A stretch of 64,000 nucleotides of DNA from a bacterium (lineage in GTDB: Bacteria; Patescibacteriota; Minisyncoccia; Phycocordibacterales; Phycocordibacteraceae), in assembly GCA_037200965.1 (NCBI GenBank), contig JBBCGK010000001.1, positions 800,001-864,000 on the forward strand, written 5' to 3'. The notes under the pieces were generated by a model. It was given only the letters and a program-made list of their open reading frames with translations, was not told the origin of the DNA and did no database searches. Positions 24,987-46,689 of the stretch are shown here, one piece after another. A program made the translations under genes and the position numbers. Every line of letters begins with the position of its first letter. Position 1 is the first letter of the stretch.

Positions 24987-25442
24987 ATGGACGCGCTCAA
25001 AAAGTTCTTGAAATCACAACGCCTTTTAGCTCTCGCCGTGCACGGTGAAAATGGACCATGGATAGCTAACGTCTATTTTGGCAGCGACGATGTGAACCGC
25101 CTCTACTTCATAAGTTCCGACACCAACATCCACAGTCTGATGATCCTGAAGGATCCGCGTGTGGCGTTCTCGACGGCATGGTTCGATCCCACAAACCACG
25201 GGGATCGAAAAGGGGTACAAGGGAAGGGTGTCTGCCGTCCGGCGAAAAACGACGAAGAAATCGCTGTGGGCGTCCGGTTGCATAACGAGAATTTCCCTGA
25301 GTTTAAGAAGAAAGTTACGACAGACTGGATCCGCACGAACGCAGGGGGCTCCACGGTCTGGGTGGTCGAGCCGAGCTATATGAAATACTGGGATGATGCG
25401 GTGTATGGAGACGACGAAAGCGAGGAATTCGCTATCGGCTAG
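24987..25442 (+). CDS. Pyridoxamine 5'-phosphate oxidase-like FMN-binding split-barrel protein
   Basis: About 150 aa with a general-stress-protein-26-like pattern; first gene of a tightly packed operon. Confidence 0.55.
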   Translation: MDALKKFLKSQRLLALAVHGENGPWIANVYFGSDDVNRLYFISSDTNIHSLMILKDPRVAFSTAWFDPTNHGDRKGVQGKGVCRPAKNDEEIAVGVRLHNENFPEFKKKVTTDWIRTNAGGSTVWVVEPSYMKYWDDAVYGDDESEEFAIG

Positions 25443-25452
25443 TACATAACGG

Positions 25453-26046
25453 ATGGAAACCGAAATAGAAGCCAAGTTCGCGGACATACATACTGAAACG
25501 CTTCGCGCCAGGCTCAAGGAGATCGGCGCGGTTCTTGAATACCCCGAAACGCTGATGCGGCGCAGGAATTTCGACTATCCCGACGGCCGTCTTAATACGA
25601 TCGGCGGGTGGATCCGCATCCGGGATGAGGGGAACAAAGTCACCTTAAGCTATAAGCAGCTTAACGACCGGACGCTCCACGGAACGAAGGAGGTGTCGGT
25701 GGACGTAAGCGATTTTGACAAGGCCGCGGATTTCCTGACTTCGATCGGGCTCGAGGCGAAATCCTATCAAGAGACGAAACGGGAGAAATGGATGTATCAA
25801 GACATGGAAATCACCATCGATACCTGGCCCTGGATTCCGCCGTTCATGGAGCTTGAAGGATCGAGCGAAGAAGCGCTTAAAGATGCCGCAGCCGCACTTG
25901 GTCTCGACTGGTCCCGCGCCATGCACGGAAGCGTTGAGACGGTATATCAGATGCACTACGATTTCCCCGAATCGGAAATCGATGCGTGGGGAAGCATCAC
26001 GTTCGTCCCGGAGCCGGACTGGCTCCTTACACGGAAGAAGGCATAG
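25453..26046 (+). CDS. CYTH-domain protein (class IV adenylyl cyclase / triphosphate tunnel metalloenzyme)
   Basis: N-terminal EIEAKF signature (ExExK) with downstream acidic/basic tunnel residues. Confidence 0.7.
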   Translation: METEIEAKFADIHTETLRARLKEIGAVLEYPETLMRRRNFDYPDGRLNTIGGWIRIRDEGNKVTLSYKQLNDRTLHGTKEVSVDVSDFDKAADFLTSIGLEAKSYQETKREKWMYQDMEITIDTWPWIPPFMELEGSSEEALKDAAAALGLDWSRAMHGSVETVYQMHYDFPESEIDAWGSITFVPEPDWLLTRKKA

Positions 26047-26062
26047 CGAGCTGATCCCCGTC

Positions 26063-26503
26063 ATGATCTATCTTGAGCGGCCGGAAGATTTCAATCCGAA
26101 ATTCGAGATCGGGAGCTGTTTTCTTAAGCGGGACGGAAAGTTCCTCCTGCTGTTGCGGCAGGATCATAAGCCGGAAGGGAATACCTGGGGCGTCCCGGCA
26201 GGGAAGATAGATGCGGGAGAGACTCCTGCGCAGGCCACAGCGAGAGAAATGGCGGAAGAAACGGGATACTCGGCAGCCCCGAAAGACCTGCGGTTTTTCA
26301 GGACAGGATATTCCCGCTTTCCCGAGTACGACTTTATCTATCACATGTTCTTCTTGAATCTGGCACGTGATCACGAAGTAGTGATTGACCCAGCTTCGCA
26401 CAAGGATTTCAGATGGGTAACCCCTGCGGAAGCGTTTGCGATGCCGCTTATCGGGGATCTCGAGGACTATATCAAGCTGTTTTACGAAGCTGATACACTT
26501 TAA
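26063..26503 (+). CDS. NUDIX hydrolase
   Basis: Nudix box GKIDAGETPAQATAREMAEETG. Confidence 0.75.
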   Translation: MIYLERPEDFNPKFEIGSCFLKRDGKFLLLLRQDHKPEGNTWGVPAGKIDAGETPAQATAREMAEETGYSAAPKDLRFFRTGYSRFPEYDFIYHMFFLNLARDHEVVIDPASHKDFRWVTPAEAFAMPLIGDLEDYIKLFYEADTL

Positions 26504-26505
26504 GG

Positions 26506-27024
26506 ATGCTCGGAGTAAAGCGAGGGACGGTAGTATTGGTTCCGCATAATCCGGAGTGGCCCCCGCTGTTCGATAAAGAGAAAAAACTACTTCTTGAAGC
26601 ATTCGGAGACAGAATAAAAGCCATAGAGCATATCGGAAGCACCGCGATTCCCGGTATGCCCGCAAAGCCGATCATAGATATCAATGTGGCCGTCAAATCG
26701 CTTGATGATATCGGTGATTTCATCCAGATACTTCCCGGGCTTGGATATGAATATATTCCGGAGAGACGTTTTGCTGACCGTCAGTTCTTTCCCAAGGGTC
26801 CGCCGGAATATAGAACCCATCATTTGAATCTCGTGGAAATAACCAGCAAGACCGGATGGATGAATGCTCTTGCATTCCGGAACTATCTGCGGAAGAATTC
26901 TTTAGCTAGGGAAGAATATCGGAAACTGAAGGAATCGTTGGCAGACCAGTATGCTGATAATCGTGAGGAGTATACCGAGCGCAAGAGCGCCTTCGTACAT
27001 GAAATACTGAAGAAAGCCCAGTGA
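26506..27024 (+). CDS. GrpB/UPF0157 family protein (nucleotidyltransferase-fold)
   Basis: VLVPHNPEWP...IEHIGSTAIPGMPAKPIIDINV typical of GrpB. Confidence 0.7.
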   Translation: MLGVKRGTVVLVPHNPEWPPLFDKEKKLLLEAFGDRIKAIEHIGSTAIPGMPAKPIIDINVAVKSLDDIGDFIQILPGLGYEYIPERRFADRQFFPKGPPEYRTHHLNLVEITSKTGWMNALAFRNYLRKNSLAREEYRKLKESLADQYADNREEYTERKSAFVHEILKKAQ

Positions 27025-27096
27025 CCGCTATCGGCAACAAAGTCCGAGTCGATAGAGTTTGTTATACTTCAACCATTAGCGGCTAAAACGATCCTT

Positions 27097-27534
27097 ATGG
27101 CGCGGACGAGCACCTATCTCAATTTCACGAACAAGAGCGAAGAGGCGTTTACTTTCTATAAATCAGTCTTCGGCGGCGAATTCACGGGAGGCATACACCG
27201 GATGGGCGATGTCCCGCCGCAGGAAGGCGTCCCGGCGCTTGCGGAGGCCGATAGGAATCTCGTAATGCATATCGAGCTCTCGATACTCGGCGGGCACGTT
27301 CTCATGGGAACCGATGCACCGGAATCGATGGGCTTCAAGCTCGTCGAGGGCAATAACGTGCACGTCAATCTCGAGCCGGATACGAAAGAAGAAGCCGAGC
27401 GACTTTTCACGGCCCTTTCGGAAGGAGGGAAAGTATCGATGCCGCTCCAAATGATGTTCTGGGGCGCGTACTTCGGGTCGTTCTCCGACAAGTACGGAAT
27501 CAACTGGATGGTGAACTATAGCTCAAAGGATTAG
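27097..27534 (+). CDS. VOC/glyoxalase-fold protein (PhnB-like)
   Basis: About 145 aa with YLNF...AFTFYKSVFGG and a C-terminal WMVN pattern typical of PhnB/3-demethylubiquinone-MT-like VOC proteins. Confidence 0.6.
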   Translation: MARTSTYLNFTNKSEEAFTFYKSVFGGEFTGGIHRMGDVPPQEGVPALAEADRNLVMHIELSILGGHVLMGTDAPESMGFKLVEGNNVHVNLEPDTKEEAERLFTALSEGGKVSMPLQMMFWGAYFGSFSDKYGINWMVNYSSKD

Positions 27535-27538
27535 CCCC

Positions 27539-28285
27539 ATGGCCAAGCCGACAACGAATGAGTTTTTCGATCTCAATAAATTTCCGAAGGAGCCTGGCAT
27601 CGTGTATTTCGCGCTCTCGATGCCGCTTCTGAATAACACTCAGAGCCCGCAGAACTGCTACGGCGCGGACGAGCACCTCATATCCAAGATTCAGGTCTCG
27701 AATGTCGGGGCGCAGGTCGTCTATACCGACAGCTTGTATCTCTACAGCGGCGAGCCCGCGATGGAACTGAAGCTCAAGCATCAGAAGCTTATCGAAGAGC
27801 ACAAGCAGGGATGGCTCAACCTCATCAAGAAGAATATTTATATCGTCCCGAGCGGCTTTACTTTCATGACCTGGAGCCAGCTTCTCCTCGACTGCCCGAA
27901 GTTCTCCTCGTACCTTGTCGAATTCCGCCGCATCTTTGAAAATGATGCGCAGCTCCGCGGGTATGTCACGCTCGATATCCAAGGAACCGGAAGGGAAGTG
28001 AATGAATACAGTATCGGCTACATGCTCGAAGAAATACTGACGGATTACCTGGTCGCCAAGGGCCACATGCGTCTCCAGAACGATTACACCAAGGACAAGG
28101 AGCAGTGGATACTCAACTGCTACCACGGAAAACCCCATCGCTCCCATATCTATCTGCACCAGCGGAATTTCTTTAAGCTCGACAATGCGAAGAACGTATA
28201 CCAGAACGCGTGGTATGACCTGGTGGCCAAAAAGCTCTACGAATTCGACCGGCTCGATATTGATACGTTCGACTTCGGGAAGTGA
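27539..28285 (+). CDS. Candidate cyclodipeptide synthase (CDPS)-family protein, NYH-like variant; function provisional
   Basis: 248 aa. Early Ser in ALSMPLLNN, Y161-x3-E165 (GYMLEE), and NCYH (Y195-H196) resembling AlbC LCYH (Y202-H203). Has a paralog at 41487-42221. Confidence is for the family assignment; the gene call itself is strong. Confidence 0.45.
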   Translation: MAKPTTNEFFDLNKFPKEPGIVYFALSMPLLNNTQSPQNCYGADEHLISKIQVSNVGAQVVYTDSLYLYSGEPAMELKLKHQKLIEEHKQGWLNLIKKNIYIVPSGFTFMTWSQLLLDCPKFSSYLVEFRRIFENDAQLRGYVTLDIQGTGREVNEYSIGYMLEEILTDYLVAKGHMRLQNDYTKDKEQWILNCYHGKPHRSHIYLHQRNFFKLDNAKNVYQNAWYDLVAKKLYEFDRLDIDTFDFGK

Positions 28286-28333
28286 GATACTCACCTCATT
28301 GCCTCTTCATTGGCATTTGATATACTAGCCTCG

Positions 28334-28385
28334 TGCCTGTGGGGCGTCAGCCCTATTTCGGCTAATACATAAGCCGAAGGCAGGC
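28334..28385 (+). ncRNA. Structured intergenic RNA element (closing helix enclosing two hairpins); nature unknown
   Basis: TGCCTG...CAGGCA closing helix around GGGC-gtca-GCCC and TTCGGCT-aatacata-AGCCGAA hairpins. Preceded by a candidate sigma70 promoter TTGCCT-16 nt-TATACT at about 28292-28319. Confidence 0.25.
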
Positions 28386-28386
28386 A

Positions 28387-28421
28387 TAGCAAAAATACCG
28401 ACATCAAGTCGGTATTTTTGC
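28387..28421 (+). terminator. Perfect 15-bp stem-loop, likely bidirectional terminator/attenuator
   Basis: AGCAAAAATACCGAC-atcaa-GTCGGTATTTTTGCT followed by ATTT. Confidence 0.45.
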
Positions 28422-28492
28422 TATTTAGTCCGCCTCCGGATCGACTTTCATCGTGCTGAAGAGTTTCATGTCGCGGTATTTGTTCGTCTCCC

Positions 28493-29341
28493 TTGGATGG
28501 CGCATACTACGAGGGAATGAAAACGAAACCCGACGGGCGCGAACTCAAGGGGTGGCGGCTTACGCTGCACCGCGTCATCTTCGAGTCGGATACGCCCGCC
28601 GGACGTTTCTTCGACACGGCGCTCCTGTGGATCATCGTGCTTTCGGTGCTCGTCGTAGTGCTCGACAGCGTCGAATCGTTCCACGCCCCGTTCGGTGCGT
28701 TCTTCCGTTATGCGGAATGGACGTTCACCATCCTCTTTACTATCGAGTACGTGCTTCGCCTTGTCTCGGTGCGCCGCCCCGCGCTCTATGCTACGAGCTT
28801 CTTCGGCATCATCGACCTCCTGGCGATCGTTCCGGCCTATGCCGCGGTACTTATCCCGGGCTTCCAGGCGGCCATGATTCTCCGCGTATTCCGGCTTTTG
28901 AGGGTCTTCCGGATACTGAAGCTCGCGCGGTTCGTCGTCGAGGGCGATACCCTGATGCAGGCGCTTCGCGCGAGCAAGGAGAAGATCGCCATTTTCATTC
29001 TCTTCGTCGCCTTTTCCGTTATATCGATGGGAAGCCTTATGTATCTCGTCGAAGGCCCCGAGCACGGGTTCACGAATATTCCCACGGGCATCTATTGGGC
29101 CATTGTGACGCTTTCGACCGTGGGCTTCGGCGATATAACGCCCGAGACCCCGCTTGGCCAGGCGATCGCGAGCTTCGTGATGCTTCTTGGCTACGGATTT
29201 ATCGCGGTGCCGACCGGGATCGTAACGTCGGAAATGGCGCGGGCAAAACACGGGGTCAACCGGCACGCGTGCGACGACTGCGGGAACACCGCTAATGATC
29301 CCGATGCGAGGTTCTGCAAGGTCTGCGGCGGAGCCTTATAG
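28493..29341 (+). CDS. Voltage-gated-like potassium channel (6TM, S4 Arg ladder, TVGFGD filter) with C-terminal zinc ribbon
   Basis: S4 RVFRLLRVFRILKLAR, selectivity filter TLSTVGFGDITP, C-terminal CDDCG...CKVCGG. TTG at 28493 or ATG at 28517. Confidence 0.75.
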   Translation: MDGAYYEGMKTKPDGRELKGWRLTLHRVIFESDTPAGRFFDTALLWIIVLSVLVVVLDSVESFHAPFGAFFRYAEWTFTILFTIEYVLRLVSVRRPALYATSFFGIIDLLAIVPAYAAVLIPGFQAAMILRVFRLLRVFRILKLARFVVEGDTLMQALRASKEKIAIFILFVAFSVISMGSLMYLVEGPEHGFTNIPTGIYWAIVTLSTVGFGDITPETPLGQAIASFVMLLGYGFIAVPTGIVTSEMARAKHGVNRHACDDCGNTANDPDARFCKVCGGAL

Positions 29342-29430
29342 CTATCCAAGCGCCCAGGGAGCTTATCCCCACCTGAAAGGAAAAACCGCGCTCGCTATAC
29401 TAAAGGGCATAGCCATAACGACGCATCACT

Positions 29431-30039
29431 ATGAGACTGTACTACTCCCCGGGCGCCTGCTCTCTTTCCCCGCATATCGTCGCCCGCGAAGCGGGGCTTC
29501 CGGTCGAACTTGATAAAGTCGATTTTAACGACGGACGGAAAACCGAGGACGGCTCGACGCTCGGGGAGGTGAACCCGAAGGGATATATCCCCGCACTGCG
29601 GCTCGATGACGGTCCGGTCCTTACCGAAGGAGTGGCGATCGTCCAGTACCTCGCCGATCAGGCGCCCGAAAAGAAGCTCATGCCGGAGCGGGGAACCACG
29701 GACTACTATCGCGCGCTCGAATGGCTTACGTTTATAAGCTCGGAGCTCCACAAGGGCTTCAGCCCCCTCTATAACCCCGCGATCGCGGAAGATGCGAAGA
29801 AAGCGGCAATTGAGAAAATCGGGAAGCGCGTAAGCTACGTGGAAGGAATGCTCGCGGGGAAGCAGTACCTTCTCGGAGACTCCTTCATGATTCCCGATGC
29901 CTATCTCTATACGATTCTGCGCTGGGCAAAGCGCTTCGAGATCGACCTGTCGGTATATCCGAACGTTACGGCGTTCATGGAACGGATGAGGGCGCGCCCG
30001 GGAGTTTCCGCGGCGCTTGCGGAAGAGGGCCTCGAATAA
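29431..30039 (+). CDS. Glutathione S-transferase (beta/GstA-like)
   Basis: N-terminal [15 protein letters not shown] thioredoxin-like domain and a C-terminal helical domain. Confidence 0.8.
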
Positions 30040-30040
30040 C

Positions 30041-30529
30041 ATGCAGAAAATCACCCCCTTTCTCTGGTTTAACGATACGGCGGAAGAGGCCGCGAACTTC
30101 TACGTATCCGTATTCAAGAACTCGAAGCTCGGCCGTATTGCCCGCTATCAGGGGAAGGAAGCGGAGCAAGTCTCGGGACGGCCGGAAGGTTCGGTGATGA
30201 CGGTCGGGTTCGAACTTGACGGTCAGGCGTTCACGGCGCTCAACGGCGGCCCCTTTTTCAAGTTTACGGAAGCGATCTCGTTCGTCGTGAACTGCGAAGG
30301 GCAGGAGGAGGTGGACGAGTTCTGGGACAAGCTCTCGGAAGGCGGGGAGAAGGGCCGGTGCGGATGGCTTAAGGATAAGTTCGGCGTATCCTGGCAGATC
30401 GTTCCTGTGGCGCTTGCGAGGCTCATGAGCGATCCTGATCCGGAGAAGTCAAAGCACGTAACGGCGGCGATGCTCCGGATGACCAAGCTCGACGTAGCGA
30501 CGCTTGAAGCGGCGTACGAAGAGGGATAA
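30041..30529 (+). CDS. VOC/PhnB-like protein
   Basis: [23 protein letters not shown]-terminus typical of PhnB-like VOC proteins; second copy of this fold in the window. Confidence 0.6.
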
Positions 30530-30572
30530 CGCTCCGATTTCCCAAAACCGGTTTTTATGCGATTATCCGCCC

Positions 30573-31403
30573 ATGGCTGAAAAGCGCCTGGAATCCGTCC
30601 ATGTCGTCCCGGGATATACCTTCTTCTATTGGGGGTTTACGCTTCCCAAGAAGGACTACGGTTCGTTTACGAAGCACTTCCGCCTCAAAGCCGGAAGCCT
30701 TACCACCCGCATCAGGCTCCTGATCGCGGGCAAGACATATCCCGCCAGGATCCGGCTTACCCGCATCACGACGAAGAACTCGCCGAACCGGGAAGTGGTG
30801 CAGATCTACTATGAGCGCGATTACGACACGCTGAAAGCGCTTCGGAAGTTCTTCATCTACAGCTACGCCTCCACGATCCGCAAGAGCAAGCCCAAGCTCA
30901 AGGAACTCATGGAGCTTGAACACATGGGCGGCGATTTGTTTAAGGTAGTCGCGCTCTCGAAGCAGGAAACGGACTTCGACGCGATGTTCCGTTTTATGGA
31001 GGAGAAGAACCTGTTCGAATTCTGGAGGGACGCGAAGAAGGGCAAGCGCGAATCTTTCTTTCTCGATTTCGCGCGGCACTGGATACCGGCGAAAGATCTC
31101 AGCAAGTATCGCGAGCGCGTGAACGTGATCTACGTCCTCTACAGTGAAAAGGATAAGCACCTGTATGTCGGCAAGGCGAACCGTTTCGGCGCGCGCCTTA
31201 AGGAAGGGCAGGGGCGTATCGGCCTTAAGAGCTGGGACAAGTTCATGTATTTCGAAATCGATCCTAAGTACGCGCACGCGCTCGAGGAAATCGAGGCGTA
31301 TACGATCAGGGTGCTCGCGTCGCTTTTCGACAACGACGTCAGGATGGCACCGCTCGGGCGGAAGGTGGAGCGGCTGGTGAACCGGCAGCTGAGGAGAAAA
31401 TAG
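30573..31403 (+). CDS. Two-domain protein with C-terminal GIY-YIG-like nuclease motif
   Basis: C-terminal VIYVLYSEKDKHLYVGKANRFGARLKEGQ fits GIY...YIG...R...E. N-terminal 180 aa unassigned. Confidence 0.45.
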   Translation: MAEKRLESVHVVPGYTFFYWGFTLPKKDYGSFTKHFRLKAGSLTTRIRLLIAGKTYPARIRLTRITTKNSPNREVVQIYYERDYDTLKALRKFFIYSYASTIRKSKPKLKELMELEHMGGDLFKVVALSKQETDFDAMFRFMEEKNLFEFWRDAKKGKRESFFLDFARHWIPAKDLSKYRERVNVIYVLYSEKDKHLYVGKANRFGARLKEGQGRIGLKSWDKFMYFEIDPKYAHALEEIEAYTIRVLASLFDNDVRMAPLGRKVERLVNRQLRRK

Positions 31404-38855: not shown

Positions 38856-39218
38856 ATGGACAGCTTTGCATTTGGCGACAGCCCGGCAATGGCCGATGAA
38901 CTCCTCGGTCTCGTACTAAGCGGCAAGAAGACCGCTACGGCCTGGGCTGCAAGCCAGGGAATCAAAGGGACGGAAGTAGGAAAGCGCGAAGTTATTAAGG
39001 ATGGCGCGGGAAGAGAGCGCGTGATTATTGAAACCACGGAGATCGTACCCCGTCCATTCTCTGAGGTCGACGCGAGCTTCGCGCGCGATGAAGGCGAAGG
39101 TGACCTGTCCCTCGCGTATTGGCGGCAGGCGCACAAGAGATACTTCACCCGCGAAGGCACGTATGCGGATGATATGGAGGTGTATTGCCAGCGTTTCCGC
39201 ATCGTGGAGGTTTTGTAG
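38856..39218 (+). CDS. ASCH-domain protein
   Basis: 120 aa with a PUA-like ASCH pattern (ELLGLVLSGKKTATAW...). Confidence 0.55.
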   Translation: MDSFAFGDSPAMADELLGLVLSGKKTATAWAASQGIKGTEVGKREVIKDGAGRERVIIETTEIVPRPFSEVDASFARDEGEGDLSLAYWRQAHKRYFTREGTYADDMEVYCQRFRIVEVL

Positions 39219-39238
39219 GGGAAGGTTATACTTATCCC

Positions 39239-39646
39239 ATGGCCGAGGCATTCAACCATCAGGCGCTTGGTTTGAGCAAAGACCGCCCGCTGGTCTATAC
39301 GGCGATGTCCAAGCATCTTTTCTATTACCGCATGTTCATTTCGAAATATGTTCTCGAGAACGGTGCCGTCCCGCTCAATCCTTTCATGGTGTTCGATTAT
39401 TTTTTGCTTGATGCCGTCGACCGCGACCTTGTCCGGGAGGGGAATAACAATCTCGTAAAAAGATGCGACGAGTTTTGGGTCTTTGGGGCCGTGAGCAACG
39501 GCGTTCTCGCGGAAATCAAGATCGCCCGCGCGAAAGGGAAACCCGTCAAGTATTTCAAGATAGAAAAGCCGCACAAAATCGTGCCGGTCGAGAAAGAACA
39601 GGTAGAACTCGAAGCGGATATAGAAGCATTCAGGTCAGAATTGTAG
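39239..39646 (+). CDS. Hypothetical protein
   Basis: 135 aa from ATG 39239; good coding signal but no motif. Confidence 0.4.
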   Translation: MAEAFNHQALGLSKDRPLVYTAMSKHLFYYRMFISKYVLENGAVPLNPFMVFDYFLLDAVDRDLVREGNNNLVKRCDEFWVFGAVSNGVLAEIKIARAKGKPVKYFKIEKPHKIVPVEKEQVELEADIEAFRSEL

Positions 39647-39653
39647 CCGCGCC

Positions 39654-40067
39654 ATGGGTACCATTACTTTCACGGTCTCCCTCAAAGAGGTACGACCATC
39701 GGATCTCTCCGGATTTTTCGTCGGCTGGCAGACTCCGCCTTCACCGGAAAAGTTCCTGCGGTTGCTGACCAACAGCGAATACCGGGTACTGGCGCTCGAC
39801 GGCGAGAAAGTCGTCGGTTTCATCACCGCCATAACGGACAAGACACTTGCCGCATACATCCCGTTTCTCGAAGTACTGCCTGAATATCAAGGCAGAGGAA
39901 TAGGGCAGAAACTCGTAAAACAAATGCTCGATCTTCTAAGCGAGTATTACATGGTTGATCTGCTCTGTGATGCGGAACTCCAGCCTTTTTACGAGAAGCT
40001 CGGCATGAAAAAGACGGCAGGGATGATGGTACGGAATTATGCAAAACAGAGCGGCTTGGATATATAA
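39654..40067 (+). CDS. GNAT family N-acetyltransferase
   Basis: EYQGRGIGQKLVKQM acetyl-CoA motif. Confidence 0.7.
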   Translation: MGTITFTVSLKEVRPSDLSGFFVGWQTPPSPEKFLRLLTNSEYRVLALDGEKVVGFITAITDKTLAAYIPFLEVLPEYQGRGIGQKLVKQMLDLLSEYYMVDLLCDAELQPFYEKLGMKKTAGMMVRNYAKQSGLDI

Positions 40068-40095
40068 AACCCGAGAAGATCCGTCTTCCTGTCCT

Positions 40096-40527
40096 TTATA
40101 GGGCCGCTTTAATTGTGCCAGCAATCTCAACCAACTCTTCGTCAGGACTTTTAGCGCGGCTTCCGGGACGATACAGGAAGACCCGCGGATCGTACCGATG
40201 AATACCCGCATCACCTTCTGTGCGGGGAACGACGTGAAGATGGAAATGAGGAACCGCCTGGCCGCCCATTTCTCCGTGATTCCATGCAAAGTTAAACCCC
40301 TTCGCGTCAAAGACTTTTTCCAGTGCCGTCTGCAGCTTATTCCTAAGATCCTCGATTGCCAGCTGTTCGTATGAAGTCAGCTCCCCATAATATTCAACGT
40401 GGCGTTTGGGAGAAACGAGGAGATGGCCGGGAGTAATCGGCAGGTTCGTCGGAAAAGCAAATGCGAGTTCGTTTTCAACCACGATCTGTTTCTGGATTTC
40501 GGGATTTTCACAAAATACGCAGCTCAT
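40096..40527 (-). CDS. HIT family hydrolase
   Basis: Histidine triad HFHLHVVPR plus an N-terminal C-x-x-C. Confidence 0.75.
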   Translation of the reverse strand: MSCVFCENPEIQKQIVVENELAFAFPTNLPITPGHLLVSPKRHVEYYGELTSYEQLAIEDLRNKLQTALEKVFDAKGFNFAWNHGEMGGQAVPHFHLHVVPRTEGDAGIHRYDPRVFLYRPGSRAKSPDEELVEIAGTIKAAL

Positions 40528-40611
40528 GCAGGGAGTATACAGTAAACGATCCCGACGCTCTGCTCCGGATTATGTATCTGCAGCGGCTGTCTTGGTATAA
40601 AATGTCCTTCT

Positions 40612-41286
40612 ATGCAGTTGTCGGAATTGCAGGGAAATCTATATCGAGATACGTATCTTTTCGATCCGGTATCGTACGGAAGGATATTCGCATTCGTGGA
40701 TTTCGCGAATGTCCGGCACTGGGCAAAGAGTTTTTGGCCTATAGAGAACAGGCTCTTCCTCCAAAAGGAGATTGATATCAGCAAGGTGGGGAAAGTCATA
40801 GACACTGTTAAGCCAAGCAGAAAGTTCTTCTACTATGGATACCACCGGGAACATCCCGAGCTCTCTGCACAGCATGAATTAAATAAGAAGCATCGGAAAT
40901 CGTGGTACCGTATAGCTAAAGCACAGGACTGCGGGTTCTCCACACGCCAGAAAGAGATAAAGGAGATCAACGATTTCGACGAGGACGGAAAATTCGTCGG
41001 CGTGCGTAGGAAGTGCAATTTCGATATCGAGATGGCTATGGACATGCTGCGACATGTCGAGCAATACGATACGGTATTCCTACGGTCCGGCGACAGCGAC
41101 TTCCATAAGCTTCTTCTCTATCTGAAGGAAAAGAAAAAGAAGCAGGTCATTACGGTTTGCGCACGGGACTTCGTAAGCAAGGAGGTGGATGAGTGTTCTG
41201 ATCTTTTCATTCCCGCAGATCCATTCAAGGATATTCTCGAGTATGTAAAAGACACCTCCCCCGGCTTGCGCCAGGGGAGGGCATAA
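40612..41286 (+). CDS. NYN-domain (LabA-like PIN) protein
   Basis: FAFVDFANV N-terminal Asp and LRSGDSDFHKLL central Asp cluster typical of NYN/LabA. Confidence 0.6.
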   Translation: MQLSELQGNLYRDTYLFDPVSYGRIFAFVDFANVRHWAKSFWPIENRLFLQKEIDISKVGKVIDTVKPSRKFFYYGYHREHPELSAQHELNKKHRKSWYRIAKAQDCGFSTRQKEIKEINDFDEDGKFVGVRRKCNFDIEMAMDMLRHVEQYDTVFLRSGDSDFHKLLLYLKEKKKKQVITVCARDFVSKEVDECSDLFIPADPFKDILEYVKDTSPGLRQGRA

Positions 41287-41486
41287 ATACGATCCTAATT
41301 ACCTCTAGGTAAGGATAGCTTGCGCTATAGGCAACAGTATACACTGATAGCAGTGTATAGGCAACTTTTCCACATGCCGCACCACGGCAAAGAACAAGGC
41401 TAAAAACAGGAACTGCAGACCGTTCACCGTTTCTTTAATGTCGCTTTACGACGTCAGAGTAAAGCAGGTCGTAGTAAGATAATTCT

Positions 41487-42221
41487 ATGTCCGAGCAGAC
41501 ATATTTCGATATCAACAAATTCCCCAAGGATTGGGGGATCATCGTGTTTCCGATCTCGATGAGCCGGATCGGAAACGCGCAGTCGCCGCAGGCCTGCATC
41601 GACGCGATGCGTTTTTTCCTGGATAAGATGACGGCGAACAGGGTAGGGGCGAATTTTATCTATTCCGAAGGCCTCTATATGAACTTCGAGCGCGACGCGT
41701 TCGAGACCAAGAACCGGTTCGCGAATACCGCGGTATCGCATATGGGCGGCGTGAGGAATCTCTTTCTCAAGAGCAGCAGGGAGCTGCAGATCGATTCCGC
41801 GCTGTCCTTCGAATCCTGGTTCCAGATGTATCTCTCGTACAAGGATTTTTTCAGCGCGTTCAAGAGCGTGCGAAAACTCTATGAGGACGACGCGGACTTC
41901 CGGAACTACGTCGCTTCGGACGCGAAGGCGGCAGGCAAGGAACTCACGGAAGAGCAGCTGAGTTTCTATCTCGAGGAACATACGTTTGCCTACCTTCTTA
42001 TGAACCGCCAGCTCCGGCTGCGCAATGATTTCGTGAACGACCGGGAACAATGGGTTCTTCTGGCATATCCCGGCATGCCGCTCCTCGGGCAGGTTTATCT
42101 GGTACAAAAAGATCCGCTCGGCATTAACGATGATTCGAACCCGTATAAGGGACAGTACAATCTCGAGAAGAAAGTGTTCATTCCATACCTCAAGGTCGAT
42201 CTGGAGAATCCGAATCTATAG
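41487..42221 (+). CDS. Candidate CDPS-family protein, XYP-like variant; paralog of 27539-28285
   Basis: 244 aa with the same N-terminus (F/YFD(L/I)NKFPK..., SM...N.QSP), (F/Y)xLEE, and LLAYP at the position of the Tyr-Pro pair of XYP CDPSs. About 30% identity to the upstream paralog. Confidence 0.45.
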   Translation: MSEQTYFDINKFPKDWGIIVFPISMSRIGNAQSPQACIDAMRFFLDKMTANRVGANFIYSEGLYMNFERDAFETKNRFANTAVSHMGGVRNLFLKSSRELQIDSALSFESWFQMYLSYKDFFSAFKSVRKLYEDDADFRNYVASDAKAAGKELTEEQLSFYLEEHTFAYLLMNRQLRLRNDFVNDREQWVLLAYPGMPLLGQVYLVQKDPLGINDDSNPYKGQYNLEKKVFIPYLKVDLENPNL

Positions 42222-42296
42222 CATCTCCCCTCTTAATCCTTTCTACACCCACCCCGTGGAAATGTATAAGCATTATCAGCCTAACCATCCGGAGAA

Positions 42297-42488
42297 ATGG
42301 CACGGTACGGAAAGAAAGCGCAGAGCAAGAAGCGCGCGATGCACGAGATGAAGCGCGGGAAACTGAAGTCGGGAAAAAGCGGCAAGAAAGTCACGAGCCG
42401 TAAGCAGGCGATAGCCATAGGACTTTCCGAAGCCCGGAAAGCGGGCGGCAAGGTGCCGCGCAAACGGGCCCGGAAATCAGGGAAGTAG
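42297..42488 (+). CDS. Small Lys/Arg-rich protein
   Basis: 63 aa, highly basic; widely conserved small-protein type. Confidence 0.45.
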   Translation: MARYGKKAQSKKRAMHEMKRGKLKSGKSGKKVTSRKQAIAIGLSEARKAGGKVPRKRARKSGK

Positions 42489-42521
42489 AAGGGCGGCCCA
42501 GCCCGGGGTATACTGCTTGGC

Positions 42522-43103
42522 ATGAAACCAACAATCGTCGTGCCAATCGCAGTCCTAGGAGTCCTTATCGTCATCGGAGCCGCCGCCCTTATCTTCATCC
42601 CTGCGGCCCACGCTCCGGTGCCCGAAGCCGCAACGACAACGTCCGCTGCGGGAACAGCTACTTCGACTCCTCTTCCTGCCGCGCAGGCTCCCGCTCCGAT
42701 GGTGCCGCTTAAGGCTACGAATGTAAGCAACGAGACGGTCTGGCGCGAGTTTACGGGACTAGGCTGGACGCTTCCGTTCTCTTTCCAGCCCTCATGGGCG
42801 GTCGCGGCCGACAAAAACCAGAACAGCATGGTGACGCAGGTAAGGCTCGCCGCAAGCGATACCAGCATTCTCATCAGCAAGAACCAACGCATCGGCATGC
42901 CTTCGAAGGTCGCGTTCTCGACCTCGACGCGCTCCATTGCCGGACAGAACGTAACGGTGACGCGCTTCGACAACCCGAATCCGAAGTACGCGTACTACCT
43001 GTACTTCGACGTTCCGGTCGGCACCGACACGTATTATTTCTCCCTCGACAGCGCGACGACTTCGATGAAGGTCGCGAACGACTTCATCAGTCTTATCAAA
43101 TAA
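42522..43103 (+). CDS. Secreted hypothetical protein
   Basis: Signal/TM helix then a mixed beta-rich domain. Confidence 0.45.
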   Translation: MKPTIVVPIAVLGVLIVIGAAALIFIPAAHAPVPEAATTTSAAGTATSTPLPAAQAPAPMVPLKATNVSNETVWREFTGLGWTLPFSFQPSWAVAADKNQNSMVTQVRLAASDTSILISKNQRIGMPSKVAFSTSTRSIAGQNVTVTRFDNPNPKYAYYLYFDVPVGTDTYYFSLDSATTSMKVANDFISLIK

Positions 43104-43104
43104 G

Positions 43105-43338
43105 ATGGCTACGGAAGAATTCAAGGTAAGCGGGGAGGAACTCATCAGGAAAGTGAAGGAGCTTATCAAAGCCGGGAACGCCAGGCGCATTATCATCAAG
43201 AACGAGAAGGGAAAGACGGTGATCGAGATTCCCCTTACGGTCGGCGCCGTCGGCGCGCTCATAGCTCCCGCGCTCGCGGCCGTGGGTGCTATCGCAGCCC
43301 TTGTCACCAAATGCACGATCGTCGTTGAACGGCGGTAA
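43105..43338 (+). CDS. DUF4342-like small protein
   Basis: EEL(I)RKVKELIKAGNARRIIIKNEKGKTVIEIPLTVGAVGAL pattern. Confidence 0.5.
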   Translation: MATEEFKVSGEELIRKVKELIKAGNARRIIIKNEKGKTVIEIPLTVGAVGALIAPALAAVGAIAALVTKCTIVVERR

Positions 43339-43347
43339 ACAAAGCGG

Positions 43348-43935
43348 TTGATGAAGAGAATCGCGTACATCATTCCGGGGTACGGCGAATCTCACACAAG
43401 GCAACGCGGGTATGATGCTCTCGCCGAGATGTTCAAGGCGAAGGGAATTGTGCCCGTACATATAGAAATCGATTGGCACGGGAAGAAGCCATCCCGGTTC
43501 GGCGAATACGCCAAACAATTTCTGCAGCAGTACGAAAAGCCGCGGCAGACCGAAACATACATACTTGGCTTCTCGTTCGGGGCGATTATCGCGCTTATAA
43601 GCGCGAAGCAGGCGAAACCGACGAATCTTATCTTATGCTCGCCTTCTCCCTTTTTCACGGAAGATATGAAAACCTTCAAGCCCGCTTTGCGTAAATGGTG
43701 GAAAGAAAACTTCGTCGAAAGCGACTATTCATTCGACGCAATTGCCCCGATGATACGACAGAAGACCTATGTGATAGTGGGTGATAAGGAGGACGTCGAA
43801 TGCGGGAAGCGGGCGAGAGCTGCCAAGCGAAACATCAGGAACAGCCAGCTCGTAACTGCCAAAGGGGCGAAACACAATATAAGCCAGAAAGAGTACCTGG
43901 CAGCGGTTTGGAAGGTCGTCTCAAAACTGCGATGA
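43348..43935 (+). CDS. Alpha/beta hydrolase-fold protein
   Basis: GFSFGA nucleophile-elbow-like motif; 195 aa. Confidence 0.5.
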   Translation: MMKRIAYIIPGYGESHTRQRGYDALAEMFKAKGIVPVHIEIDWHGKKPSRFGEYAKQFLQQYEKPRQTETYILGFSFGAIIALISAKQAKPTNLILCSPSPFFTEDMKTFKPALRKWWKENFVESDYSFDAIAPMIRQKTYVIVGDKEDVECGKRARAAKRNIRNSQLVTAKGAKHNISQKEYLAAVWKVVSKLR

Positions 43936-44297
43936 AAACCTACAAAGCCATCTCGCTCAAGCAGCCGTTCGCGAACTGGGTCGCGGAAGGGAAGAAAACG
44001 ATCGAGACGAGGAAGTGGAATACGAAATACCGGGGCGACCTGGTAATTTGTTCTTCAAAAAAGCCCGCTATCGATCCGGCGGGCTATGCGCTTTGCCTCG
44101 TCGAGCTCTACGACACGTGGCCGATGCGCAAGGAAGACGAGACGGGCGCCTGCTGCAAGCTCTACGACGGCGCATACGCCTGGCTCATCCGGAATGTCCG
44201 GCCCATACATCCGCCGGTGCCCGTAAAAGGGCAGCTGAGTATCTTCGACTTCGAGCTTCCCCTGGGGTATGATGGAGTAAATAAAAACCCGGTTTAG
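43932..44297 (+). CDS. ASCH-domain protein
   Basis: KAISLKQPFANWVAEGKKTIETR N-terminus typical of ASCH; ATGA overlap with the upstream gene. Confidence 0.5.
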   Translation: MKTYKAISLKQPFANWVAEGKKTIETRKWNTKYRGDLVICSSKKPAIDPAGYALCLVELYDTWPMRKEDETGACCKLYDGAYAWLIRNVRPIHPPVPVKGQLSIFDFELPLGYDGVNKNPV

Positions 44298-44299
44298 CT

Positions 44300-44656
44300 A
44301 TGCCGTCTCTCAGAACTCCCGAAGTAGTCGCCAAATATCTTGCGCATCGGGAAAGCCGCAAAGGCAGTGATTCGTGCGAGCTATGCGAGAAGCTCGCGAC
44401 CAAAGAGTTTACCTATTGGAAAGTTGTTGAAAACGACTTCCCTTACGGACAGATCGCCAAGACGCACCATATGCTCGTGCCGCTCAGGCATACGACAGAA
44501 GACGGTCTCACCGACAGCGAGCTGGCGGAACAGAAGCTTATCAAACGCGGATTCGTGAACGAGGGATACGACTGGATCATCGAAGCGACGCACAAGAACA
44601 GGTCGATCCCGTCGCATTTCCATCTGCACCTTATCGTCCAGAAAGAATCCGCATGA
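44300..44656 (+). CDS. HIT-like protein
   Basis: C-terminal HFHLHLIV histidine triad and an N-terminal CELCE. Confidence 0.55.
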   Translation: MPSLRTPEVVAKYLAHRESRKGSDSCELCEKLATKEFTYWKVVENDFPYGQIAKTHHMLVPLRHTTEDGLTDSELAEQKLIKRGFVNEGYDWIIEATHKNRSIPSHFHLHLIVQKESA

Positions 44657-45270
44657 CCAAGCCGAAAGCCGTAATCTATGACAACGACGGCATGCTTATG
44701 CACGGAGGCCGTTTCAGCGAACAGTATTCAAGAGAGTTCGGCGTTGATCTCGCCGTGATGTCCCGATTTTTCGAGACCTCCTTCAAGCTATGTCTCATAG
44801 GGAAAGCGGATTTAAGGGAAGAACTAGCAAAGGTACTTGAGGACTGGGAATGGAAAGGAACGGCCGATGAACTTATGCGTTACTGGTTTTCTATCGGCGA
44901 TACGCTATACGAAGATACGCATGCGTCTGTCGGCAAACTCAAGGAACAAGGCGTGGTCGTATGTCTTGCGACGAACCAGGAGAAGTATCGACTTCAATAT
45001 CTAACGAAGAAGTTTTCATACGATTCGCTATTTGACGAAATATTCTCCTCATCCGAACTCGGAGCGCTTAAGCATAGCGAGGAAGGACTGGAGAAGATAT
45101 CCCGGAAACTAAAGGAGGCGCATTCCATCGCCGACAGGGGCGAGGTTATGTACTGGGATGACCGGGAAAGCCAAATCAAGAACCTTGGTGAGGGAGGGTT
45201 CAATGCGCAGCTTTATACAGACTATCCCGCTTTCAGAAAGACGCTGGAAGAATACGGGCTTCGATTGTAG
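44653..45270 (+). CDS. HAD-superfamily hydrolase
   Basis: Motif I VIYDNDGML (DxDG). Confidence 0.7.
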   Translation: MTKPKAVIYDNDGMLMHGGRFSEQYSREFGVDLAVMSRFFETSFKLCLIGKADLREELAKVLEDWEWKGTADELMRYWFSIGDTLYEDTHASVGKLKEQGVVVCLATNQEKYRLQYLTKKFSYDSLFDEIFSSSELGALKHSEEGLEKISRKLKEAHSIADRGEVMYWDDRESQIKNLGEGGFNAQLYTDYPAFRKTLEEYGLRL

Positions 45271-45303
45271 TCCACCGTTTTCATTTCTTGCTACAATACC
45301 CGT

Positions 45304-46689
45304 ATGGAAGACATCAAGGAGAAGTGCGGCGTCTTCGGGGTCTATGGCAGAGGACTCGAGGCCGCACGCCTTACCTTCTTCGGCCTCTTCGCGCTTCAGC
45401 ACCGCGGACAGGAAAGTTCGGGAATAACGGTTTCCGGCGGCGAGCGCCTCTTCTCGCACAAGGGCATGGGGCTCGTGATGCAGGTATTCGCGGAGAAGGA
45501 TATCGAGAATCTTGCGGGGCATGCGGCCATAGGCCATAACCGGTATTCGACGACGGGCGGGTCGCTTCCGGAGCATATCCAGCCGTTCGTGGTGCGCTCG
45601 GGTACGCTCGCACTCGCGCATAACGGCAACCTTCCGTCGACGAAGGCGCTTGAGGAGTTCCTCGCGAGCCGCGGAAAGAATGCCGCGGGCTTTTCCGATT
45701 CGAAGCTCATCATCGAGGCGATATCGGTATATATGGACGACGGGCTTTCCGTCGAGGATGCGATAGCGAAGACGTATCCCTTGATGACGGGCGCTTTTTC
45801 GATTGTTATCCTTACGCCCGACAAGTTGATCGCGCTTCGGGACAGCTACGGCATCCGCCCGCTCTCGCTTGCCCGCCTCAACGGCGGGTTTCTCGTCGCG
45901 TCGGAAACGTGCGCTTTTAATCCGATGGGCGCGGTCTTCGAGCGCGACGTGCGCCCGGGGGAAATGCTGGTGATAAGCGAAGCGGGGCTTATGAGCCGCC
46001 AGCTTGCGGAAGGGAAGGAACAGCTCGACGCGTTCGAATTCGTCTACTTCTCCCGCACCGACAGCGTGCTTATGGGCCGGTCGGTATACGAAGCGCGGCG
46101 GCGCTTCGGTGAAATACTCGCGCGAGAGGCGGACATCGAGGTCGATATCGTCGTGCCCATCCCCGAAACGGGAATTCCGGTCGCCGCGGGTTATGCCGCC
46201 GCGGCAGGCATCACGTATGAGCCCGCGCTCGCTAAAAGCCGCTATATCCAGCGCACGTTCATCGCGCCCGACCAGCATCTGCGCGAGCAGGGCGTGAAGA
46301 TGAAGCTGTCGGCGGTCGCTGATGCGATCAGGGGGAAGCGTGTCGCGATCGCCGACGACTCCATCGTGCGCGGCACGACCTCGAAGCAAATCGTCGCGAT
46401 GCTTTTTGAGGCCGGGGCGAAGGAGGTGCACTTCCTCGTCTCGTCGCCCCCGGTCCGTTTCCCTGATTTCTATGGCATCGATACCCCCAGGCAGGACAAG
46501 CTTCTCGCGGCGAACCATTCGATAGAGGAGATGCGGGAGTATCTTGGCGCGACGTCGCTCCATTTCCTCTCGGTCGGAGGGCTTATCGAAGGCATCGGTC
46601 TCCCGCGGGAAAGTCTCTGCCTCTCCTGCTTTACGGGCGAGTATCCCATAGACCTCGGGGAGAGAGCGGGCGAAGTGTCGTATCGGTAA
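45304..46689 (+). CDS. purF: Amidophosphoribosyltransferase (glutamine PRPP amidotransferase)
   Basis: N-terminal M-CGVFGVYG (Ntn Cys), Gn-AT domain, PRTase motif VAIADDSIVRGTT. Confidence 0.9.
   Translation: MEDIKEKCGVFGVYGRGLEAARLTFFGLFALQHRGQESSGITVSGGERLFSHKGMGLVMQVFAEKDIENLAGHAAIGHNRYSTTGGSLPEHIQPFVVRSGTLALAHNGNLPSTKALEEFLASRGKNAAGFSDSKLIIEAISVYMDDGLSVEDAIAKTYPLMTGAFSIVILTPDKLIALRDSYGIRPLSLARLNGGFLVASETCAFNPMGAVFERDVRPGEMLVISEAGLMSRQLAEGKEQLDAFEFVYFSRTDSVLMGRSVYEARRRFGEILAREADIEVDIVVPIPETGIPVAAGYAAAAGITYEPALAKSRYIQRTFIAPDQHLREQGVKMKLSAVADAIRGKRVAIADDSIVRGTTSKQIVAMLFEAGAKEVHFLVSSPPVRFPDFYGIDTPRQDKLLAANHSIEEMREYLGATSLHFLSVGGLIEGIGLPRESLCLSCFTGEYPIDLGERAGEVSYR

Follow-up and report, generated by a model that had tools for sequence, protein, structure and literature searches.

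The window examined here, a stretch of 64,000 nucleotides from a bacterium of the Patescibacteriota (assembly GCA_037200965.1, contig JBBCGK010000001.1, positions 800,001 to 864,000 of the forward strand), encodes a 'hypothetical protein', hereafter the query, which belongs to a family of very distant homologues of the cyclodipeptide synthases (CDPSs). The members of this family are stand-alone, single-domain proteins of approximately 245 residues, and are closest to the XYP subfamily of CDPSs. In the best-supported reading, they form a branch of the tRNA-dependent CDPSs that is rare and had so far gone unrecognised, and which occurs in the ultra-small bacteria of the candidate phyla radiation (CPR) and in DPANN (Diapherotrites, Parvarchaeota, Aenigmarchaeota, Nanoarchaeota and Nanohaloarchaeota) archaea. 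The query itself would, on balance, be a highly divergent XYP-like CDPS that employs the canonical ping-pong mechanism. Only two subfamilies of CDPSs, NYH and XYP, are distinguished in reviews from 2022 and January 2026 (PMC11610984, PMC12945691), and a partial coverage of the literature revealed no description of a third CDPS clade, or of a CDPS-like family in CPR or DPANN lineages. A preliminary description of the window had proposed that the query is CDPS-like and of the XYP type, and this core claim is upheld by profile homology, by fold, and by the conservation of catalytic positions.

The homology is detectable by comparison of profiles. The XYP set comprised six characterised CDPSs taken from Supplemental Data Set 1 (supplement 4) of Gondry et al. 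2018 (PMC5816076), and hhalign aligned the family to these validated enzymes with probabilities of 96.2-96.7% (E values of 2.5e-9 to 3e-10; 172 columns at 96.2%). A further run against XYP CDPSs returned a probability of 92.8%, and a 96-sequence XYP profile 94.3%, whereas control profiles, in which the XYP alignment was reversed or had its columns shuffled, never exceeded 0.3%. The NYH set was assembled from the sequences of solved CDPSs, found by searching the PDB with AlbC as bait, and 112 relatives were collected; the family matched the NYH profile with a probability of 1% when it contained four sequences, and of only 51% (E 1.6e-4) when it contained 112. The nearest known systems are enzymes such as Nbra-CDPS (5MLQ), Fdum-CDPS (5OCD), Rgry-CDPS (5MLP), Cglo-CDPS (6Y4B) and ParcuCDPS (7QB8) for the XYP subfamily, and AlbC (3OQV/4Q24), Rv2275 (2X9Q), YvmC (3OQH) and BtCDPS (6ZTU) for the NYH subfamily. 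For scale, the XYP and NYH subfamilies align to one another with a probability of 99.2% (E 2e-19) and a score of 131, whereas the family scores 56-72 against the XYP CDPSs. Hence the family is farther from the XYP CDPSs than these are from the NYH CDPSs. Sequence identity to XYP CDPSs is 10-17%, and their D-x-L-(Q/H)-R-H-N block has become (E/D)-G-L-Y-M-N in the family. By both HH score and profile searches, the family falls outside the XYP cluster: searching with the XYP profile returned no family member, and there was no CDPS among the best 150 matches of the family profile search. Nor was there a CDPS among the matches when PDB sequences were searched with the single protein, or with a 50-sequence family profile.

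The positions at which the family is most strictly conserved include those that align with catalytic positions of CDPSs. Conservation was counted across 164 full-length members, in query numbering. The near-invariant residues are P22 (146 members), S24 (160), K47 (150), Y59 (161), L63 (156), Y64 (160), H85 (158), W111 (150), F160 (160), E163 (162), E164 (163), Y194 (163), P195 (149), G196 (150) and Y224 (158), with position 61 being acidic in 132 members. In the alignments with XYP CDPSs, and in AlbC numbering, P22 corresponds to G35, S24 to the acyl-enzyme nucleophile S37, R27 to X40, W111 to W119, F160 to Y178, E163-E164 to E181-E182, and Y194-P195-G196 to Y202-P203-G204. In the XYP and NYH profiles alike, the partner of S24 is the Ser of G-I-S, and Y194 is paired with Y202 in every alignment made, including those with NYH CDPSs only. 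The query also carries the XYP signature, in which Y202-P203 (here Y194-P195) is combined with a non-conserved position 40 (here R27). By profile alignment, E61 takes the place of the Asp in the D-x-L-x-R-H-N block of XYP CDPSs; in ParcuCDPS this Asp is D58, which forms a hydrogen bond with the catalytic Ser, and the mutation of which causes the loss of more than 90% of activity (PMC7613923). Four residues are conserved throughout CDPSs: the Ser, the Glu, the cyclisation Tyr and Y178 (PMC7613923). The first three are retained in the family, along with the Pro of the XYP signature. In XYP CDPSs, the tRNA acceptor stem is bound by the basic strands beta2 (K-phi-x-F) and beta7 (L-(R/K)-F-K-K) (PMC7566563). 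Conserved basic residues of the family are found at K11 (126/164), in the N-terminal segment containing F-D-I-N-K-F-P, and at K229 (118/164) and position 230 (96/164; Val in the query), in a C-terminal hairpin, both of these regions being beyond that which hhalign aligned confidently.

The predicted fold is likewise that of a CDPS. An AlphaFold2 model of the query, built with the family alignment, had a predicted local distance difference test (pLDDT) score of 93.3 and a predicted template modelling (TM) score of 0.91. When this model was compared with the PDB using Foldseek, the first 45 matches were CDPSs (E values down to 5e-6, TM scores of 0.43-0.56), followed by the tyrosyl- and tryptophanyl-tRNA synthetases TyrRS and TrpRS. 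XYP structures ranked above NYH structures for both this model and that of the query's paralog in the window (pLDDT 95.3). In the model, the near-invariant residues lie on a single helix and where the parallel strands reach their C-terminal ends, an arrangement typical of Rossmann-type active sites. Relative to the class Ic aminoacyl-tRNA synthetases (aaRSs), TyrRS and TrpRS, the family lacks the HIGH motif, the KMSKS motif (both are absent from the two proteins in the window) and the anticodon-binding domain, with the query totalling just 244 amino acids, and the loop bearing the Ser nucleophile occupies the place of the aaRS HIGH motif. The query has the class Ic aaRS-like Rossmann fold expected of a CDPS, in a single domain of approximately 240 residues, with neither HIGH nor KMSKS.

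These structural features also bear on the idea that the family descends from a class I aaRS or a CDPS but has no catalytic activity left, as in a protein that merely binds tRNA or nucleotides, or else performs a function unrelated to tRNA. The absence of any curated family match, the acidity of the query (isoelectric point 5.4) and the variable genomic context of the family's genes would all fit such a protein. However, the strictest conservation is concentrated where the core strands end and on the catalytic helix (S24, Y59, Y64, W111, E163, E164, Y194 and G196), as in an active site, the HIGH and KMSKS motifs that bind ATP are lacking, and the protein is nearer to CDPSs than to any aaRS, making this explanation improbable.

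If the query is instead a CDPS that follows the canonical cycle, then an aminoacyl-tRNA would dock with the enzyme, and its aminoacyl group would move to Ser24, possibly activated by Glu61 in the manner of Asp58 in ParcuCDPS. A second aminoacyl-tRNA would then be attacked with the help of Glu164, generating a dipeptidyl-enzyme, and Tyr194 would promote the intramolecular cyclisation that releases a 2,5-diketopiperazine. Analogy with characterised CDPSs is the basis for predicting the use of aminoacyl-tRNA, the acyl-enzyme intermediate, and both the nature and the amino-acid composition of the product.

Multiple observations weigh against this assignment. Firstly, curated models do not recognise the family: searches of Pfam, NCBIfam, PADLOC and PHROGs returned no meaningful match to the query or its paralog, including with PF16715 (Pfam, E<=0.1) and the NCBIfam CDPS model (E<=1), and six distant full-length relatives were similarly unmatched by these CDPS models at the same thresholds, with no meaningful Pfam match of any other kind. 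In HMM-versus-sequence comparisons (HMM, hidden Markov model), the family never scores above approximately 20 bits against canonical CDPSs, and therefore annotation pipelines miss it. The validated Cglo-CDPS (P0375, PDB 6Y4B) likewise has no precomputed PF16715 match. Canonical XYP CDPSs are already known from Parcubacteria (PMC5816076), and these match PF16715-type models, being a different group from the family described here. Secondly, the fourth of the residues conserved throughout CDPSs, Y178, is a Phe in 160 of the 164 members, although ParcuCDPS with the same Tyr-to-Phe change (Y167F) still yields product, in a lower amount (PMC7613923). Thirdly, K47, Y59, Y64, H85 and Y224 are invariants particular to the family, with no known role in CDPSs, and an insertion of approximately 13 residues, absent from XYP CDPSs, is found beside the active-site helix; hence the chemistry may differ. 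Fourthly, the residue equivalences rest on profile alignments, rather than on superposition in three dimensions. An alternative register, obtained with NYH CDPSs only, shifted the catalytic helix by nine residues, such that Y169 matched Y178, and N173 matched E182. This was superseded by the XYP alignments, and rejected because these pair F-Y-L-E-E with Y-x-x-E-E at a probability of 93-97%. Fifthly, a Pfam survey of 90 immediate neighbours of family genes, and 148 neighbours at +/-2 and +/-3, identified no recurrent partner, P450 or cyclodipeptide oxidase, while methyltransferases and radical S-adenosylmethionine enzymes were found only twice each. With no clustered tailoring genes, the product would therefore be a cyclodipeptide that undergoes no modification, unless the enzyme acts in another aminoacyl-tRNA-dependent role.

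Such departures from the known enzymes might mean that the CDPS scaffold has given rise to a new class of enzyme, which probably still uses aminoacyl-tRNA, but with diverged chemistry. Ser24 might mediate the transfer of a single aminoacyl group to a small molecule, lipid, cell-wall precursor or protein; equally, the enzyme might release a linear dipeptide, or hydrolyse particular aminoacyl-tRNAs. This would accord with the low HH scores between the family and XYP CDPSs, relative to that between the XYP and NYH subfamilies; with the Phe in place of Y178; with the family's own invariants, and the insertion next to the catalytic helix; and with genes that stand alone in reduced genomes poor in secondary-metabolite clusters. 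It would also accord with two metagenomic members, P0157 (429 amino acids) and P0168 (406 amino acids), having a C-terminal SET methyltransferase domain (PF00856, E 1e-9 and 1.5e-10, respectively), as SET domains are not known to be partners of cyclodipeptide or diketopiperazine pathways. However, E164 and Y194, the equivalents of E182 and Y202, are each as invariant as the nucleophile, and a pure transferase or hydrolase would have no need to retain either, while a Tyr-to-Phe change at position 178 is one that ParcuCDPS tolerates (PMC7613923). We regard diverged chemistry as the main rival, although less likely than the canonical ping-pong mechanism. Fusions were also observed among canonical XYP CDPSs, with P0459 containing a YbaK-type aminoacyl-tRNA editing domain (PF04073), and P0463 a 2-oxoglutarate-Fe(II) oxygenase (PF03171).

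The family HMM identifies only two copies in the window, the query and its paralog (Table 1). Both are real open reading frames, as originally described, and their paralogy is evident from a BLASTP alignment with 33% identity over 237 amino acids (E 2e-47). The sequence blocks previously quoted for the pair were also confirmed (F/YFD(L/I)NKFPK, SM...N.QSP, (F/Y)xLEE and RL.ND...EQW.L, with LLAYP in the query against NCYH in the paralog), with most of the shared blocks being motifs conserved family-wide. The paralog retains S27, D64 and W112, and its motifs are A-L-S27-M-P-L, Y-T-D64-S-L-Y, Y161-M-L-E-E165 and C-Y195-H196-G; it and its 61%-identical ortholog, P0120, are the only members with a Tyr at the Y178 position. 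The preliminary description went further in suggesting that the two copies mirror the NYH and XYP subfamilies, and this does not hold. The paralog does have a His (H196) at position 203, but Leu30 occupies the position of N40, a residue that neither copy in the window possesses, and so the NYH signature of N40, Y202 and H203 is incomplete. Furthermore, a His at position 203 is found in only 4 of 164 members, which are scattered over the family, one of them being 61% identical to the query with its Y-P motif, and XYP structures ranked first for the paralog's AlphaFold2 model. Therefore the pair does not reproduce the split between NYH and XYP CDPSs, and both copies belong to a single XYP-like clade, within which a rough neighbour-joining tree places them in different clades. 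Elsewhere, a 525-amino acid protein that is 47% identical to the paralog (P0112) has a 280-residue N-terminal extension, with only a weak winged-helix match (E 0.05). Another metagenome-assembled genome (MAG) contains two family genes just 1.8 kb apart (L034:2449-3204 and L034:4977-5744), and hence local duplication of the family is not unique to the window.

The family is rare in sequence databases. A word-indexed search found 104 relatives, all of them 'hypothetical', labelled as Parcubacteria, Moraniibacteriota, Pacebacteria or Patescibacteria. When 1.84 billion cluster representatives were scanned exhaustively with HMMER, only 232 clusters passed E<=1e-3, and many of these were fragments; in 185,579 species-representative genomes, a search by sequence pattern located at least 47 loci. 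At least one match to the family profile, the 1789-amino acid P0226, was a false positive, being a repetitive S-layer protein. Most of the 47 loci were labelled as CPR (Paceibacteria/Parcubacteria, Moranbacteria, Falkowbacteria, Saccharibacteria and Peribacteria). Thirteen loci of the family bear archaeal labels, whether DPANN or otherwise (Woese-, Pace-, Nano- and Micrarchaeota), and their neighbouring genes include TBP and MCM. Labelled family members are almost all from CPR or DPANN lineages, in contrast to XYP CDPSs. Some MAGs had unexpected labels: Bacillota, Micavibrio, Gammaproteobacteria, Acidimicrobiales and Methanosarcinales (L009, L010, L013, L033, L045, L052, L055, L036 and L054). 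These labels may be wrong, or may be binning errors, and bear on the apparent confinement of the family to CPR and DPANN lineages. In the rough neighbour-joining tree, most archaeal copies formed one cluster nested among the CPR copies, a topology suggestive of transfer across domains, from one episymbiont lineage to another. It is possible, although we advance it tentatively, that the family is a third ancient CDPS subfamily exchanged between CPR and DPANN, which either performs a non-canonical aminoacyl-tRNA-dependent chemistry on a Ser/Glu/Tyr CDPS scaffold, with a Phe in place of Tyr178 and a new invariant set of His85/Tyr59/Tyr64/Tyr224, or makes a specific diketopiperazine for the interaction between episymbiont and host.

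The small genomes of CPR and DPANN contain many genes without an assigned function, and the chemical interactions of these organisms with their hosts are almost unexplored, while genome mining for CDPSs relies on sequence models that are blind to this family. A third clade, were it confirmed, would widen the sequence space of tRNA-dependent enzymes that form peptide bonds, supply naturally occurring variants in which to test what Tyr178 does, and offer a plausible activity for a 'hypothetical protein' that is conserved in CPR and DPANN organisms.

The commonest family of neighbouring genes is the class I aaRSs. Three loci have a methionyl-tRNA synthetase gene that runs in the same direction as the family gene and stops 3-9 nt short of it (L004:4558-5997, L006:3498-4997 and L014:3483-4988), and a fourth has an isoleucyl-tRNA synthetase gene, likewise co-oriented, that stops 1 nt short of it (L007:1652-4999). 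These four loci represent two independent arrangements, which are weakly consistent with a link to aminoacyl-tRNA.

In the window, the genes next to the query are those originally named, a NYN-domain protein and a HIT-family hydrolase, both confirmed with Pfam. It had been suggested that the former is functionally paired with the query, such that a CDPS-like enzyme and a NYN (PIN-like) nuclease-fold protein would form a two-gene unit acting on tRNA or RNA, and the two genes are indeed adjacent and on the same strand. However, a co-occurrence check with tblastn found no NYN homologue within 5 kb of the family gene at any of 54 other loci, NYN was not among the recurrent neighbour families at +/-1 to +/-3, the paralog has no NYN neighbour, and the NYN gene is separated from the query by a 200 nt spacer with a 9-bp perfect hairpin. 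Such a unit is hence very improbable, and the adjacency of the query to the NYN gene is coincidental. The HIT family had one weak match, 3 kb away, in the 54 loci. The inverted repeat of the spacer consists of TATACACTG (41338-41346) and CAGTGTATA (41351-41359), and the hairpin is flanked by the direct repeat TATAGGCAAC (41326-41335 and 41356-41365); it could be a terminator or an operator.

Table 1. Genes and conserved motifs described in the window, and the archaeal-labelled loci of the family
Feature	Position	Strand	Basis and remarks
Query CDS (coding sequence), 244 aa (amino acids), ATG start	41487..42221	+	GenBank MEJ0054029.1, WDN10_04920, 'hypothetical protein'; CDPS-fold enzyme, new XYP-like clade
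Paralog CDS, 248 aa	27539..28285	+	GenBank MEJ0054012.1, WDN10_04835, 'hypothetical protein'; same family, different and smaller subclade
P22-I-S24-M-S-R27, end of first core strand (S24 codon 41556-41558)	41550..41567	+	hhalign
Y59-S-E61-G-L63-Y64-M-N66, after second core strand; equivalent to XYP D-x-L-x-R-H-N block	41661..41684	+	Profile alignment
W111, equivalent to P1-pocket position 119 Trp, typical of XYP CDPSs	41817..41819	+	Profile alignment, P1 motifs xxxxWxxx
F160-Y-L-E163-E164, equivalent to XYP Y-x-x-E-E	41964..41978	+	Profile alignment
Insertion of ~13-15 residues, R174-Q188, between catalytic helix and Y-P-G strand	42006..42050	+	hhalign gap; modelled as loop
Y194-P195-G196, strand end, equivalent to AlbC Y202-P203-G204	42066..42074	+	Profile alignment
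NYN-domain protein (PF01936, E 7e-17)	40612..41286	+	Pfam; neighbour only, no conserved unit
HIT-family hydrolase (PF01230, E 8e-21)	40096..40527	-	Pfam; neighbour only
Archaeal-labelled loci	L023, L025-L027, L029, L031, L035, L036, L039, L041, L042, L044, L054		

Each copy is embedded in a long series of genes, mostly on one strand, for small enzymes that are unrelated to one another (24987-31403 and 38856-46689). Around the paralog, these are, in order, PNPOx-like, CYTH, NUDIX, GrpB and VOC genes, then the paralog itself and an ion channel. Upstream of the query are ASCH, DUF7768, GNAT, HIT (on the minus strand) and NYN genes, and after it DUF6496, DUF4342, alpha/beta-hydrolase, ASCH, HIT-like and HAD genes, and a probable PurF, from inspection of its translation. 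Other families are duplicated within these runs, which contain two ASCH, two HIT-like and two VOC genes.
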